DNA of 64,000 nucleotides from Escherichia coli. Its GTDB lineage: Bacteria; Pseudomonadota; Gammaproteobacteria; Enterobacterales; Enterobacteriaceae. A program made the translations under genes and the position numbers. Shown here one piece after another: positions 3,314-20,580 of this stretch (position 1 is its first letter; every line of letters starts with the position of its first letter). The notes under the pieces are model-generated. The model saw nothing but the letters and a program-made list of their open reading frames with translations. It was not told the origin of the DNA and ran no database searches. The stretch lies in NCBI RefSeq assembly GCF_048403405.1, contig NZ_CP183129.1. One strand, given 5' to 3'.

Positions 3314-4993
3314 TTATTTAATCCACATAACCTGCCAGGGGCGCAGCGTTATTTCATTACCCAATATATCAACTTCACTAATCAGATCCCGACCGTGCAG
3401 ATCAGTAATATTTATATGCTGAATATTTTCACTGACATTAAACAATCCTGTCAGACAATTACCATCCGCGTTGTTTCTTTGAATACGCATTACGGATGAA
3501 TTAACCGTGTCGATGGTAAAATCATTATCCGGATGAAACTCGTTATGACTGCAACGAAGTGTAATTAAACGCGACAACTGATGATATACCGCATGCCTTA
3601 ATGTATCTTCATCGTTCAGTTCTCGGGTTATCTCTTCATTGTGATATTTTTTACGGTTAATCGCACGGTTATATCCCAGTTTTTCGACACCTGCGTAATC
3701 ATTACGCGAGCCAAGAATACTTTGAATATATATCGCTGGCACACCGGGGAAACTTAACAAAATCGCATGGGCAAGGATAAACCTGGCACACCGCTCTTCA
3801 TCGCTACTCTCGCGGCGGCTTAACGCATCCATATAGGTGACATTTATTTCATAGGGACTGCGCGTACCGTCGGGATTATTTTTCCAGTTTACTAATGCAC
3901 CTTCCTGCTGTAACGCCTCGACCAGCGCTAATATTTCGCTTTCTGGTAACAAGCCACGCAGTGGGTTCAGCCCGATGCCATCGTGAGAGGCGAGGAAGTT
4001 AAACCAGGTGGTGTTGCTGGAAGGTAGTGTCAGGTTTTGCGCCCACGCACAAAGCGCCTCAACGTTCTGTTTTTGCACCGCATGCAGCACCAGCGGCGGC
4101 AGCGAGAACTGGTACACCATATGCGCTTCGTCATCGCCTTCGCCAAAGTAAGCAATGTTGTCTTTATGCGGAACATTGGTCTCGGTAATGATCACTGTAC
4201 CTGGTGCTACGTCATCAATAATCGACCGTAACAGCTTGATAATCAGATGTGTTTTTTCCAGATGGATGCAGCTTGTTCCTGGCTCTTTCCACATAAAGCC
4301 AACGGCATCCAGCCGGACATATTCTGCGCCCTTTTCCAGGTAGCACAGCAATACATCCACCATCGCCAGCAACACTTCAGGGCTACGGTAATTGAGGTCA
4401 ATTTGATCGTCGCTAAAGGTGGTCCATAAATGGCGCGTGGAATTATCATCCATTTGAAACGGTGTTAATAGCGGTAACGCACGCGGACGGGTGACGGCGC
4501 TGAGATCGGTTTGCGGATCAACAGCAATAAAAAAATCTTCAAAACCTGGCTGCTGTTGTAAATAGTTTTTAAACCATTCACTTTTTGCCGACATATGGTT
4601 GCAGACAAAATCAAACATTAAATGACTGCATTCACCGAGTTGCTGAATATCCTGCCACTCCCCCGCTTCACTGGCGACCTGATGATAATCAATTACCGAA
4701 AACCCATCATCAGATGACCATGGATAAAAAGGTAATAAATGAACATGTGAAAAAATGCTTTGCAGCCATTGATGGTAAAACTGATTAAATGTGGGTAGTG
4801 GTTTTAAATCATTACTGTGAAATTGATCAGCATAGGTAATTAACACGACATCACTTTCATCCCAGTGTTTTTTACGTCGCTGTGTAATTAATCGTTTCGC
4901 ACTCTCAAGACGCGTTACAAGTTTCTGTAAATGAGTCGCGGTAAATGTTCCACCGTAGATTTCGTCCAGGTAATCCGTAATTTTCTGTTTCAT
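3314..4993 (-). CDS. ycjM: GH13 sucrose-phosphorylase-like enzyme (glucosylglycerate phosphorylase)
   Basis: ORF track 3314..5020; start refined to internal ATG at 4991-4993 giving 559 aa, matching YcjM. Confidence 0.82.
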   Translation of the reverse strand: MKQKITDYLDEIYGGTFTATHLQKLVTRLESAKRLITQRRKKHWDESDVVLITYADQFHSNDLKPLPTFNQFYHQWLQSIFSHVHLLPFYPWSSDDGFSVIDYHQVASEAGEWQDIQQLGECSHLMFDFVCNHMSAKSEWFKNYLQQQPGFEDFFIAVDPQTDLSAVTRPRALPLLTPFQMDDNSTRHLWTTFSDDQIDLNYRSPEVLLAMVDVLLCYLEKGAEYVRLDAVGFMWKEPGTSCIHLEKTHLIIKLLRSIIDDVAPGTVIITETNVPHKDNIAYFGEGDDEAHMVYQFSLPPLVLHAVQKQNVEALCAWAQNLTLPSSNTTWFNFLASHDGIGLNPLRGLLPESEILALVEALQQEGALVNWKNNPDGTRSPYEINVTYMDALSRRESSDEERCARFILAHAILLSFPGVPAIYIQSILGSRNDYAGVEKLGYNRAINRKKYHNEEITRELNDEDTLRHAVYHQLSRLITLRCSHNEFHPDNDFTIDTVNSSVMRIQRNNADGNCLTGLFNVSENIQHINITDLHGRDLISEVDILGNEITLRPWQVMWIK

Positions 4994-12616: not shown

Positions 12617-13174
12617 TTAAAACGTGGTGGGCGTATGGGCGCTGATAATTCGGCAAATACCTGCCGACGTATTACTGAAACTGTGCGGGATGCCGGTATT
12701 AATGGCATAACTTTGCCCCGCGACGAGGTGGTAATCCTGACCATTAATCGTCAGAACAATTTCACCTTCCAGTACAGTGCCTATTTCCTCACCCTGATGC
12801 TTAATTCTTTCCCCAGTGGTTGTGCCCGGCTGGTAAGTTTCAAAGATCATCGCCAGCGTGCGATTCGGGTTACCGTTATGAACCAGCTTCATTGACACAC
12901 CCTGACTGCCCATCTCAATTAAGTCGTCCTGATTAATGACGACCTGCGGCTCATCAGGTTTTTCCGGCTCGGAAAAGAATTCCGAGAGTGACAGACCATA
13001 CACCTTCAGCAGCTTTTGCAGCGTACTGATGGCAGGGCTGACTTTATCTTGTTCTATCGTACTGATAGCACTGTGAGTCAGCCCGGAGAGTTCGGCGGCA
13101 CGACGTTGTGAAAGCCCCTGCTGCTGGCGGATTTCCGACAAGCGTTTTCCTGGCGCCAGTCCCTCATCACTCAT
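12617..13174 (-). CDS. puuR: HTH-XRE/cupin transcriptional repressor of puu genes
   Basis: 185-aa ORF with N-terminal HTH and C-terminal cupin fold; synteny. Confidence 0.87.
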   Translation of the reverse strand: MSDEGLAPGKRLSEIRQQQGLSQRRAAELSGLTHSAISTIEQDKVSPAISTLQKLLKVYGLSLSEFFSEPEKPDEPQVVINQDDLIEMGSQGVSMKLVHNGNPNRTLAMIFETYQPGTTTGERIKHQGEEIGTVLEGEIVLTINGQDYHLVAGQSYAINTGIPHSFSNTSAGICRIISAHTPTTF

Positions 13175-13200
13175 ATTTGCATTTCCTTAAACTGTAGTGG

Positions 13201-13965
13201 TCAGAGTCGCTGTTTTTCAGCGATATGGTGCTGACAAGCGGTGATAAAGCCCTCGAACAATATACGCGAAAGCGCGTACTCGCTACTGTTCCATTCCGGG
13301 TGCCACTGTACGCCCAGCGCAAAAGGATGATTGATGACGCTAACCGCCTCAACTAAGCCATCCGGCGAGCGAGCTTCAACACGCAACCGTGGGCTAACGA
13401 CCTTCGCCCCTTGTCCATGCAGAGAGTTTACCCAAAAGTTGCTACATTCAGGTAACAACGCAGACAGTAATCCCCCCTCTTCAACCTGAACTTCATGCGA
13501 CGGCGCATATTGCTGCTCCACCGGCAGTTCGGGATCTTCCCGATGTTCCAGCAATTCAGGCTGTTCGCACAGCTTGCGATGCAACGAACCACCGGTTGCC
13601 ACCACCAGTTCCTGTAAACCCCGGCAGATGGCGAAAATGGGGATGCGCCTTTCGAGTGCGGCATTAATTAACGCCATGCTCAGAAGATCACGCCCGGGAT
13701 CGGCGTCAGGCTCATCGCCGTTTTCACCATATAGGTGCGGCTGCACATTGCTGGGACTACCAGGAAGATAAATGCCATCGAGTTTCGGCAAAAGTTGTTC
13801 AAGTAATGACGGTTCCGCCAGCGCATGTGGCAGCGCAATTGGCAAGCCGCCTGCGTGGATGATGGCATTCAGGTACTTTTCTTGCAGAGTCTGGGTCGCA
13901 TGACCCTTAAGCCTGTTCCTGCACATTACGACACCGATAACCGGATTGTTCATTATATTTTCCAT
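13201..13965 (-). CDS. puuD: Gamma-glutamyl-gamma-aminobutyrate hydrolase (class-I glutamine amidotransferase-like)
   Basis: ORF track 13201..13977; start refined to ATG at 13963-13965 (254 aa). Confidence 0.87.
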   Translation of the reverse strand: MENIMNNPVIGVVMCRNRLKGHATQTLQEKYLNAIIHAGGLPIALPHALAEPSLLEQLLPKLDGIYLPGSPSNVQPHLYGENGDEPDADPGRDLLSMALINAALERRIPIFAICRGLQELVVATGGSLHRKLCEQPELLEHREDPELPVEQQYAPSHEVQVEEGGLLSALLPECSNFWVNSLHGQGAKVVSPRLRVEARSPDGLVEAVSVINHPFALGVQWHPEWNSSEYALSRILFEGFITACQHHIAEKQRL

Positions 13966-14033
13966 GCTCAATCTCACAAAGTGGACTAAATTATCGCCAT
14001 TACTGCGCTTTAAATGACCTTTATGTTCAATAT

Positions 14034-14048
14034 TTTTTCAATCTAGCA
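14034..14048. promoter_or_regulatory. Candidate PuuR operator in puuD-puuA divergent region
   Basis: TGTTCAATATTTTTT (rc AAAAAATATTGAACA) resembles the AT-rich PuuR recognition motif as I recall it; sits in the puuA/puuD divergent promoter region. Confidence 0.4.
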
Positions 14049-14118
14049 GTGGGTTTTCATTTTTGCAAACTCAATTTAACATTTGACAAACATTTAGTTT
14101 GCATACAGATTCGAATGG

Positions 14119-14133
14119 TGGTCATTATATTTT
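14119..14133. promoter_or_regulatory. Candidate PuuR operator in puuD-puuA divergent region (second copy)
   Basis: TGGTCATTATATTTT (rc AAAATATAATGACCA), a second related copy of the same motif just upstream of puuA. Confidence 0.4.
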
Positions 14134-14176
14134 ACGCTTTGATAACGAGCGGAAAACAAACCAAAGGCGAAGAATC

Positions 14177-15595
14177 ATGGAAACCAATATCGTTGAAGTA
14201 GAGAACTTTGTTCAGCAGTCAGAAGAGAGGCGGGGTAGCGCCTTTACGCAGGAAGTGAAACGCTACCTGGAGCGCTACCCGAATACGCAATATGTTGATG
14301 TTTTACTTACCGATTTGAATGGTTGCTTCCGTGGAAAACGTATTCCTGTTTCAAGCCTGAAGAAGCTCGAGAAAGGGTGTTATTTCCCGGCCTCGGTATT
14401 TGCAATGGATATTCTGGGTAATGTAGTAGAAGAAGCGGGCCTGGGTCAGGAAATGGGCGAGCCGGATCGTACCTGTGTTCCTGTTCTCGGTTCCTTAACC
14501 CCTTCTGCCGCCGATCCAGAGTTTATAGGTCAGATGCTCCTGACCATGGTCGATGAAGATGGCGCTCCCTTTGACGTTGAGCCGCGGAACGTTCTTAACC
14601 GCCTGTGGCAGCAGCTGCGCCAGCGCGGATTGTTCCCGGTCGTAGCGGTAGAGCTGGAGTTCTATTTACTGGATCGCCAGCGCGACGCTGAAGGGTATCT
14701 GCAACCGCCCTGCGCGCCCGGCACCGATGACCGCAATACACAAAGCCAGGTTTACTCCGTTGATAATCTCAACCACTTCGCCGACGTGCTCAATGATATT
14801 GATGAACTGGCGCAGTTACAGCTGATTCCGGCAGATGGAGCGGTCGCTGAGGCCTCGCCAGGTCAGTTTGAAATCAATCTTTACCATACCGATAACGTGC
14901 TGGAAGCTTGCGATGATGCGCTGGCACTAAAACGCCTGGTGCGTCTGATGGCAGAAAAGCATAAGATGCACGCCACTTTTATGGCGAAGCCGTATGAAGA
15001 GCACGCGGGCAGCGGGATGCATATCCATATCAGTATGCAAAATAACCGTGGCGAGAACGTGCTTTCTGACGCGGAAGGCGAAGATTCGCCGCTGCTGAAA
15101 AAGATGCTTGCCGGGATGATTGACCTGATGCCGTCATCAATGGCGTTGCTGGCACCAAACGTGAACTCGTATCGCCGCTTCCAGCCAGGTATGTATGTAC
15201 CGACGCAGGCGTCGTGGGGCCATAACAACCGCACCGTCGCCCTGCGTATTCCGTGCGGCGATCGCCATAATCACCGCGTGGAATATCGCGTGGCGGGTGC
15301 CGATGCCAACCCGTATCTGGTGATGGCGGTGATTTTTGCCGGTATTTTGCATGGCCTTGATAACGAACTGCCATTACAGGAAGAAGTCGAAGGTAACGGG
15401 CTGGAACAGGAAGGCTTACCCTTCCCGATTCGTCAGAGCGATGCCCTGGGTGAGTTTATCGAGAATGATCACCTGCGCCGCTATTTAGGCGAACGCTTCT
15501 GCCATGTCTATCACGCCTGTAAAAATGATGAGCTGTTGCAGTTTGAGCGCCTCATCACAGAAACAGAAATTGAGTGGATGTTGAAAAACGCGTAA
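14177..15595 (+). CDS. puuA: Gamma-glutamylputrescine synthetase (glutamine synthetase family)
   Basis: ORF track 14099..15595; start refined to ATG 14177 (472 aa, METNIVEV...), preceded by AGGCGAAG; GS catalytic-domain motifs. Confidence 0.88.
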   Translation: METNIVEVENFVQQSEERRGSAFTQEVKRYLERYPNTQYVDVLLTDLNGCFRGKRIPVSSLKKLEKGCYFPASVFAMDILGNVVEEAGLGQEMGEPDRTCVPVLGSLTPSAADPEFIGQMLLTMVDEDGAPFDVEPRNVLNRLWQQLRQRGLFPVVAVELEFYLLDRQRDAEGYLQPPCAPGTDDRNTQSQVYSVDNLNHFADVLNDIDELAQLQLIPADGAVAEASPGQFEINLYHTDNVLEACDDALALKRLVRLMAEKHKMHATFMAKPYEEHAGSGMHIHISMQNNRGENVLSDAEGEDSPLLKKMLAGMIDLMPSSMALLAPNVNSYRRFQPGMYVPTQASWGHNNRTVALRIPCGDRHNHRVEYRVAGADANPYLVMAVIFAGILHGLDNELPLQEEVEGNGLEQEGLPFPIRQSDALGEFIENDHLRRYLGERFCHVYHACKNDELLQFERLITETEIEWMLKNA

Positions 15596-17974: not shown

Positions 17975-19618
17975 ATGCGCCAGGTATTATCGTCTCTTTT
18001 GGTGATTGCTGGACTTGTGAGTGGTCAGGCAATCGCCGCGCCTGAATCCCCCCCGCATGCTGATATCCGCGACAGCGGTTTTGTCTATTGCGTCAGCGGG
18101 CAAGTCAACACCTTTAACCCATCCAAAGCGAGCAGTGGGTTAATTGTCGATACCCTTGCCGCCCAGTTTTATGATCGACTGCTGGATGTCGATCCCTATA
18201 CCTATCGCCTGATGCCGGAACTTGCCGAAAGCTGGGAAGTTCTCGATAACGGCGCGACCTATCGCTTCCACCTGCGTCGCGATGTTCCGTTTCAAAAAAC
18301 CGACTGGTTTACTCCCACTCGTAAAATGAATGCCGACGATGTGGTGTTTACCTTCCAGCGAATTTTTGACCGCAACAACCCGTGGCATAACGTCAACGGC
18401 AGCAACTTCCCCTACTTCGACAGCCTGCAATTTGCCGATAACGTGAAAAGCGTCCGCAAACTGGATAATCATACGGTTGAGTTCCGACTCGCCCAGCCGG
18501 ATGCTTCTTTTTTGTGGCACCTGGCGACCCATTATGCATCGGTCATGTCGGCAGAATATGCCCGGAAGTTAGAGAAAGAAGATCGCCAGGAGCAACTCGA
18601 CCGTCAACCGGTCGGCACTGGACCGTATCAGTTGTCGGAATACCGCGCCGGGCAATTTATTCGCCTACAACGTCATGATGACTTCTGGCGCGGTAAACCG
18701 TTAATGCCGCAGGTGGTGGTGGATTTAGGCTCCGGCGGCACCGGACGTCTGTCGAAACTCCTGACCGGGGAATGCGACGTTCTGGCCTGGCCTGCTGCGA
18801 GCCAGCTATCCATTTTGCGTGACGACCCGCGCTTGCGTTTAACGCTGCGTCCTGGGATGAACGTCGCCTATCTGGCATTTAACACCGCCAAACCGCCACT
18901 AAATAATCCCGATGTCCGCCATGCGCTGGCACTGGCGATTAATAACCAGCGCCTGATGCAATCCATCTATTATGGTACGGCTGAAACGGCGGCCTCTATT
19001 TTACCGCGCGCCTCGTGGGCCTATGACAACGAGGCTAAAATTACTGAATATAATCCGGCGAAATCGCGCGAACAGTTGAAGGCGTTGGGGCTGGAAAACT
19101 TAACGCTGAAACTGTGGGTACCAACACGTTCGCAGGCGTGGAACCCCAGTCCACTGAAAACTGCCGAATTGATTCAGGCGGATATGGCACAGGTTGGCGT
19201 AAAAGTGGTGATTGTGCCGGTAGAAGGTCGCTTTCAGGAGGCGCGGTTGATGGATATGAGCCATGATCTGACGTTATCCGGTTGGGCGACTGACAGTAAC
19301 GACCCGGACAGTTTCTTCCGTCCGTTACTGAGCTGCGCGGCAATTCATTCGCAGACCAACCTCGCCCACTGGTGCGATCCGAAATTCGACAGCGTATTGC
19401 GTAAGGCGCTCTCCTCGCAGCAACTGGCGGCGCGCATCGAAGCCTATGACGAAGCGCAGAGTATTCTGGCGCAGGAATTGCCCATTTTGCCGCTGGCGTC
19501 GTCATTGCGTTTGCAGGCCTATCGGTACGATATCAAAGGTCTGGTACTTAGCCCGTTTGGTAACGCCTCCTTTGCTGGGGTGTATCGCGAGAAACAGGAT
19601 GAGGTGAAAAAACCATGA
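17975..19618 (+). CDS. sapA: Periplasmic substrate-binding protein of Sap ABC transporter
   Basis: 547-aa ORF with signal peptide, family-5 solute-binding protein; first gene of sapABCDF. Confidence 0.9.
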
Positions 19619-20580
19619 TTATCTTCACCTTACGCCGCATTTTGTTATTGATTGTCACCTTGTTCCTGCTGACCTTCGTTGGCTTCAGCTTGAGCTATTT
19701 CACTCCACACGCGCCGTTACAAGGCGCGTCACTGTGGAATGCCTGGGTGTTCTGGTTTAATGGCCTGATCCACTGGGATTTTGGTGTTTCCAGCATTAAC
19801 GGTCAACCGATTGCCGAACAGTTAAAAGAGGTCTTCCCGGCGACGATGGAACTGTGCATCCTCGCCTTCGGTTTTGCGCTGATTGTTGGCATCCCCGTGG
19901 GGATGATTGCCGGGATTACGCGCCATAAGTGGCAGGATAACTTGATCAACGCCATCGCCTTACTGGGCTTTTCCATCCCGGTGTTCTGGCTGGCGCTTCT
20001 GTTGACGCTATTTTGTTCACTCACGCTAGGTTGGTTGCCCGTTTCAGGGCGTTTCGATCTGCTCTACGAAGTGAAACCGATTACCGGTTTTGCGTTGATT
20101 GATGCCTGGCTTTCGGACTCACCATGGCGGGATGAAATGGTCATGAGCGCAATCCGCCATATGATATTGCCCGTGATCACCCTGTCGGTTGCGCCAACAA
20201 CTGAAGTGATCCGACTGATGCGTATCAGCACTATCGAAGTGTATGACCAGAACTATGTTAAAGCAGCGGCGACCCGCGGTTTGTCGCGCTTTACTATTTT
20301 GCGTCGCCACGTTCTGCATAACGCGTTACCTCCGGTTATTCCTCGCCTGGGCTTACAGTTTTCTACCATGCTGACGCTGGCGATGATCACCGAAATGGTT
20401 TTTAGCTGGCCGGGTTTAGGGCGCTGGTTAATTAACGCTATCCGCCAGCAGGATTACGCAGCCATTTCCGCCGGAGTGATGGTGTGTGGCTCACTGGTCA
20501 TTATTGTTAACGTGATTTCTGATATTTTGGGTGCCATGGCTAACCCTCTGAAACATAAGGAATGGTATGCCTTACGATAG
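19615..20580 (+). CDS. sapB: Sap ABC transporter permease
   Basis: 321-aa multi-TM permease ORF, overlaps sapA stop. Confidence 0.9.

Follow-up and report, generated by a model that had tools for sequence, protein, structure and literature searches.

The closest described system is that of PuuR in Escherichia coli K-12, where PuuR represses the puuAP and puuDRCBE operons (PMC9397018), and where the spacer between puuA and puuD is reported to hold four PuuR DNA-binding motifs, with puuA and puuD both repressed by PuuR (PMC9951944). The regulator leaves the DNA on sensing putrescine (PMC7901475; PMC10965056), and for this spacer secondary sources report protection by purified PuuR, seen by DNase I or gel shift, that putrescine relieves (PMC9951944; PMC7901475; PMC10965056). 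The PuuR-dependent range has been given as 36-fold for the full-length puuD promoter, 7-fold for a truncated puuD promoter and about 2-fold for puuA promoters (PMC9951944), and a transplanted PuuR site, 'PuuO', is functional in hybrid promoters (PMC11683335). In addition, the RegulonDB matrix for PuuR recovers all known PuuR operons (PMC12645834). XRE-cupin regulators bind as dimers to palindromes in the core promoters of adjacent genes (PMC7901475), and the Pseudomonas regulators PauR, PsdR and ErfA share with PuuR the architecture of an HTH_3 and a Cupin_2 domain (Trouillon et al. 2021, PMC7901475). By analogy, the operators of these Pseudomonas repressors, which are palindromic, dimer-bound and placed in the core promoters of adjacent metabolic genes, would resemble the PuuR sites, and the repressors are likewise autoregulated and released from DNA by a metabolite of the pathway, with consensus sequences that vary among family members (PMC7901475). 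PuuR differs in having four sites within one 211-bp spacer, two of them downstream of a predicted transcription start, whereas most of the Pseudomonas members have one or two targets; PauR, however, controls 29 genes from 12 genomic locations.

The DNA analysed here is a stretch of 64,000 nucleotides from E. coli (hereafter the window), and compared with the K-12 sites it offers the same organism, the same DNA and the same regulator gene. PuuR footprints and recognition sites in the puuA-puuD spacer of E. coli K-12 are said to have been described by Nemoto et al. in 2012, in J Bacteriol 194:3437. The PuuR-operator system is already known, having been characterised in E. coli K-12 in that year, and the spacer examined here is identical to that of K-12. 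Four motifs have been counted in K-12 (PMC9951944) and four conserved candidate sites are found in the window, with no demonstrable difference between the two. The literature searched gave secondary statements only, with no sequences or coordinates of PuuR sites. The genes that frame the region are the following.

puuR, 12617-13174, minus strand: 185 aa, 100% identical to RefSeq PuuR WP_001278727.1
puuD, 13201-13965, minus strand: 100% identical to the RefSeq annotation
puuA, 14177-15595, plus strand: 100% identical to the RefSeq annotation

Positions 13966-14176 are exactly the 211-bp puuD-puuA spacer. The regulator gene puuR lies directly downstream of puuD, as the second gene of the puuD operon, and in the annotated locus puuC, puuB and puuE lie beyond puuR, with puuP after puuA. 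Pfam assigns to PuuR an XRE-type helix-turn-helix (HTH_3, residues 13-66, E=6e-15) and a cupin domain (Cupin_2, residues 111-178, E=6e-19), to PuuD the Peptidase_C26 family, and to PuuA a glutamine-synthetase catalytic domain. Together with 30 nt of each flanking gene, the spacer matches K-12 MG1655 base for base, occupying MG1655 positions 1360909-1361119 (MG1655 coordinate = 1375085 minus window position), so that publications on K-12 apply to it directly; the K-12 RefSeq record annotates no regulatory features in the spacer. Of 5426 complete E. coli genomes, 4371 matched a 2-kb query around the spacer, and the top matches are 100% identical and annotated with puuR, puuD and puuA. Conservation within the species is concentrated between the genes: the spacer, compared over 13936-14206, is at least 99% identical in 4209 of the 4371 E. 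coli genomes with the region, while the 2-kb stretch 13000-15000, coding flanks included, reaches at least 99% identity in only 807 of the 4371, which indicates that the puu control region is more constrained than its genes. The puu region as a whole is missing from 1055 of the 5426 complete genomes.

An earlier note on this DNA had pointed to two related, dyad-like 15-mers in the spacer as candidate PuuR operators. The second of them, TGGTCATTATATTTT, lies where it had been placed, at 14119-14133, and the first, TGTTCAATATTTTTT, is present as well, but its coordinates had been given as 14034-14048, whereas it is found 10 bases further to the left, at 14024-14038. The two differ at 3 of 15 positions, and taken as a pair their likeness does not exceed chance: when the 241-bp region (34% G+C) was shuffled 1000 times with its dinucleotides preserved, 65% of the shuffles gave a pair of 15-mers at least that similar, so that the two 15-mers by themselves are no evidence. 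They are related nonetheless as members of a larger family, whose best representative is a third copy, TGTTCATTATATTTT, at 13947-13961, within codons 2-6 of puuD. Mismatches to TGTTCATTATATTTT number 0 at 13947, 2 at 14024 and 1 at 14119, and these three are the only matches with two or fewer mismatches in the 64-kb window. A repeat search grouped the three copies into a single family of 19-nt direct repeats with spacings of 77 and 95 bp, and a three-copy family of equal quality appeared in 2 of 1000 local shuffles; the repeat signal is therefore significant only when the third copy is added. The copy at 13947-13961 is the exact reverse complement of AAAATATAATGAACA, a string which we take to be the published 15-bp PuuR consensus, and which had no match in the literature searched. 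This consensus-perfect copy had been overlooked because it lies just inside puuD, outside the interval to which the note was confined. A fourth copy at 13982-13999, discernible only through cross-species conservation, had also been passed over, so that the two proposed sites do belong among the operators, but as two of four.

S1, 13947-13964, plus strand: TGTTC ATTATATT TTCCA, the first 15 nt being exactly TGTTCATTATATTTT
Site B, 13982-13999, plus strand: TGGAC TAAATTAT CGCCA, that is TGGACTAAATTATCGCCA; the fourth and more degenerate copy, in the puuD 5' leader
S2, 14024-14041, plus strand: TGTTC AATATTTT TTCAA, the first 15 nt being the first 15-mer of the earlier note
S3, 14119-14136, plus strand: TGGTC ATTATATT TTACG, the first 15 nt being the second 15-mer of the earlier note

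All four sites have the same orientation, with the better half on the left, and S1, besides puuD codons 2-6, also takes in the TG of the start codon of puuD, an ATG at 13965-13963 on the minus strand. In the 64-kb window, the four highest-ranking distinct matches to an 18-bp position weight matrix were S1, S2, S3 and B, with S1 at the top and scores of 22.0 for S2 and 20.3 for S3, and the density of a degenerate dyad pattern in puu spacers was about 100 times that in the flanking 570 kb of these loci, although both the matrix and the pattern were built from these same sites, which makes both specificity tests partly circular. The next match to the matrix, TGGTCATTATTGTTAACG at 20495-20512, scored 16.0, about the score of site B; it falls inside a 321-aa open reading frame (19615-20580) and is thus probably a chance match. 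Two minus-strand candidates for the fourth site, at 14067-14081 and 14078-14092, each with 5 mismatches, were dropped in favour of site B, and the second of these fits ArcA better.

Comparison among genera was based on a scan for PuuR with one genome per species, which gave 80 loci, from Escherichia to Serratia, Erwinia, Pantoea and Rahnella. For the alignment we used the 59 of these 80 loci that have the puuA / puuD-puuR arrangement with full-length matches, representing about 20 genera. Most of the 59 spacers are 210-215 bp long, and their identity to the window ranges from 54 to 97%, with a median of 71%. Mean conservation across them, taken as the average share of the majority base, is 0.92 for S2, 0.92 for S3, 0.88 for S1 and 0.87 for B, compared with 0.67 for the remaining spacer, and part of this conservation among related genera could come from overlapping signals, e.g., -10 regions or the start codon. 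In other genera site B reads TGGAC TAAATTAT GACCA or TGTTC GAAATTAT GAACG, which are clear inverted repeats.

S1 presents a special case, as it coincides with codons, and here 13 Serratia loci are informative in which a second puuR is directly divergent from a puuA paralogue, without puuD, across spacers of 400 bp (loci L058, L059, L062, L064-L066, L068 and L070-L075, at about locus positions 3600-4000). An S1-like 18-mer, TGGAAAATATATTGCCCA, is invariant in these puuD-less spacers and is followed by the old start codon, whereas the flanking columns are 30-60% conserved, which speaks for the retention of S1 as a DNA element and not merely as codons. The same 18-mer, TGGAAAATATATTGCCCA, is carried by Rahnella loci. 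In the puuD-less Serratia loci the first puuD codons (MGNIF...) survive along with the S1-like operator, and in L058 only, by hand translation, they open a reading frame of about 40 codons that ends at the puuR start; this short frame may represent a remnant or a puuR-coupled leader.

Taken together as a family, the sites define a unit of 18 bp, an imperfect palindrome of the form TGKWC-N8-GWMCA, or roughly TGKWC-AWWATWTT-GWMCA, centred between positions 9 and 10. The profile was made by pooling the unique orthologous instances with equal weight for the four site classes, and its near-invariant positions are 2 (G), 9 (A) and 10 (T). When the profile is set against its reverse complement about the 9|10 centre, the correlation is r=0.91, or 0.87 if only the outer five pairs are counted; all other centres yield values between -0.34 and 0.48. 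Single E. coli sites, in contrast, are poor palindromes: 1-3 of 5 half-site pairs match, where the background averages 1.26. Symmetry is weakest in S2, whose right half is unrecognisable. The pooled profile being symmetric and the single sites weakly so, the symmetry belongs to the family and not to each copy. The term dyad-like, which the earlier note had used, therefore does not describe the 15-mers as written, but it is apt for the 18-bp unit at the level of the profile. A palindromic unit of 18 bp would be expected for a dimeric XRE-cupin repressor, and PuuR presumably binds to it as a dimer.

From sequence and conservation we predicted one promoter for each of the divergent operons, as follows.

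Predicted puuA sigma-70 promoter, 14083-14111, plus strand: TTGACA at 14083-14088, a 17-nt spacer and CAGATT at 14106-14111
Predicted puuD sigma-70 promoter, 14040-14068, minus strand: TTGCAA at 14068-14063, a 17-nt spacer and TAGATT at 14045-14040

The predicted puuA start lies near 14118, which would put S3 at about +1 to +18, and the predicted puuD start lies near 14033, which would put S2 at about -8 to +10, B at +35 to +52 and S1 at +70 to +87; each predicted promoter hence has its start region overlapped by a site, S2 for puuD and S3 for puuA. In the 59 spacers the predicted puuA -35 is conserved at 0.75-1.00, and within its -10, which reads CATATT in most genera, A2 and T6 are invariant (1.00) and the other positions range from 0.39 to 0.75, the usual signature of a -10 element. 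For puuD, the predicted -10 is conserved at 0.90-0.97 and the -35 at 0.73-1.00. A sigma-70 consensus scan listed neither of the two predicted promoters, its sole match lying elsewhere, inside S1. This match, TTGTGA-16-TATAAT at 13979-13952 on the minus strand, was rejected as a puuD promoter, as its -10 is in S1, downstream of the puuD start codon; it probably reflects the operator sequence and not a promoter. Outside the four sites, a long and strongly conserved block extends over 14060-14104, and the -35 hexamers predicted for puuA and puuD both fall within it. The block also includes an inverted repeat, TGCAAACTCAAT / ATTTAGTTTGCA, with arms at 14064-14075 and 14092-14103 that are 92% complementary and 16 nt between them.

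Other regulators are known or suspected at this spacer, and the repeats have to be weighed against each of them. ArcA represses the puu genes anaerobically, its 15-bp consensus, GTTAATTAAATGTTA, is AT-rich and bears a partial likeness to the motif, and both S1 (13948-13962) and S3 (14120-14134) match this consensus at 11 of 15 positions; moreover, PMC9397018, citing Partridge 2006, reports recognition sites for ArcA and FNR in the puuA-puuD spacer. A match of 11 of 15 to an AT-rich consensus is nevertheless weak in a spacer of 34% G+C, and the best ArcA match is found elsewhere, as GTTTGTCAAATGTTA at 14077-14091 on the minus strand, with 12 of 15 positions and two TGTT repeats 11 bp apart. The TG at positions 1-2, the central AT, the CA at positions 17-18 and the two-fold symmetry of the repeats are also unlike the direct-repeat architecture of ArcA sites. 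We consider it very unlikely that these repeats act as ArcA boxes, whether in place of PuuR operators or in addition to that role. The ArcA-like GTTTGTCAAATGTTA overlaps the predicted puuA -35. Consensus searches of the region for sigma-54, NtrC, CRP and FNR gave only weak matches, with 3-6 mismatches. Only for the site at 14119 does AcrR come into question, as the reading would be that this site is part of an AcrR operator and not a PuuR operator. AcrR shifted a 226-bp puuA promoter fragment at 1 uM (PMC9769551), and the best match of the region to the 24-bp AcrR operator of acrAB, at 14100-14123, has 9 mismatches, as many as a predicted AcrR site in the puuA promoter is reported to have (PMC9769551). 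This match, however, shares only 5 bases with S3, 9 mismatches in 24 positions are weak, the binding required more AcrR than the acrAB control (PMC9769551), and S1, B and S2 would be left unexplained, all of which renders the AcrR reading of S3 extremely unlikely, even though AcrR may coexist with control by PuuR. The AcrR-like match at 14100-14123 overlaps the predicted puuA -10.

A more general doubt is that the similarity could be a by-product of AT-rich, -10-like hexamers and UP-like tracts, with no site for a dedicated regulator. S3 does contain TATATT, the minus strand of S1 contains the TATAAT called promoter-like by the scan, and the pair of 15-mers from the earlier note is no more similar than chance would give in an AT-rich region. 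The three-copy family, on the other hand, was matched in only 2 of 1000 shuffles, the outer positions, which contain G and C, are conserved and symmetric, and the literature puts four PuuR motifs in the spacer (PMC9951944). Promoter elements would not be expected at S1 and B, since both sites come after the predicted puuD start, and the TATAAT in S1 is within the puuD coding sequence and unable to drive puuD, so that a by-product of promoter composition is, in our judgment, highly improbable. The reading that we hold with high confidence is that the putrescine-responsive XRE-cupin repressor PuuR has four operators here, and that each of the two 15-mers forms the left-hand 15 nt of one of them. 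Locus identity, identity of the spacer with K-12, a unique motif family, conservation and the literature all agree with repression of puuA and puuD by PuuR, as the earlier note had proposed, and its interpretation of the 15-mers as PuuR operators is supported as correct in substance.

The mechanism that we propose joins the sites, their uniqueness, their conservation, the symmetry of their profile and the identity of the locus with K-12, as found here, to three points taken from the literature, namely that PuuR binds in the spacer, that the motifs there number four and that putrescine releases the regulator; the positions of the promoters, the role of each site and binding by dimers are what we infer. 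The predicted puuA start coincides with S3, and S2 covers both the -10 and the start of the puuD promoter as predicted, so that PuuR dimers on S2 and S3 would keep RNA polymerase away and close both promoters. Site B, in the puuD leader, and S1, over the start codon, would probably add cooperative binding or a roadblock and thereby strengthen repression of puuDRCBE, and the 36-fold range of the full-length puuD promoter, as compared with 7-fold for the truncated one, fits such a contribution of the downstream sites B and S1. When putrescine rises, it would bind to the cupin domain, PuuR would come off the DNA, and puuAP and puuDRCBE would be transcribed. As puuR is itself in the puuD operon, the regulator would be autoregulated through the same sites.

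The centres of the sites are 42 bp apart for B and S2, 95 bp for S2 and S3, and 137 bp for B and S3, close to 4, 9 and 13 helical turns, and this spacing would allow PuuR to bind these sites on one face of the helix. If so, the helical spacing, together with the spacer length of 210-215 bp, would allow a single looped or cooperative complex that closes both divergent promoters. We advance tentatively, with somewhat less than even confidence, the more specific reading in which the operator is an 18-bp imperfect palindrome and not the usual asymmetric 15-mer, puuD is repressed through S2, B and S1 with S3 acting at puuA, and a looped or cooperative complex is possible.

The discovery value of the locus is little, as this is a textbook-style local repressor-operator system that is already used in putrescine biosensors. 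What the present analysis would add is a palindromic reading of the operator, imperfect and 18 bp long, and a candidate fourth site at 13982-13999, both of which derive from sequence comparison, and the exact map of four sites together with the palindromic reading could help the design of PuuR-based sensors. With regard to the earlier note, a remembered motif had been recognised correctly from sequence, but with a slip in one coordinate and with the best copy overlooked.

A difference is seen downstream of puuP. In E. coli ST2747, the 100%-identical reference (L001, 7745-10911), a partial duplicated puuP and two ymjA-family genes precede sapA. In the window, the segment 17417-19618 holds a 547-aa open reading frame that begins already at 17975; this frame, at 17975-19618 and upstream of the 321-aa frame mentioned above, is presumably sapA, and with a sapA-like frame so placed the window is unlike E. 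coli ST2747 downstream of puuP.
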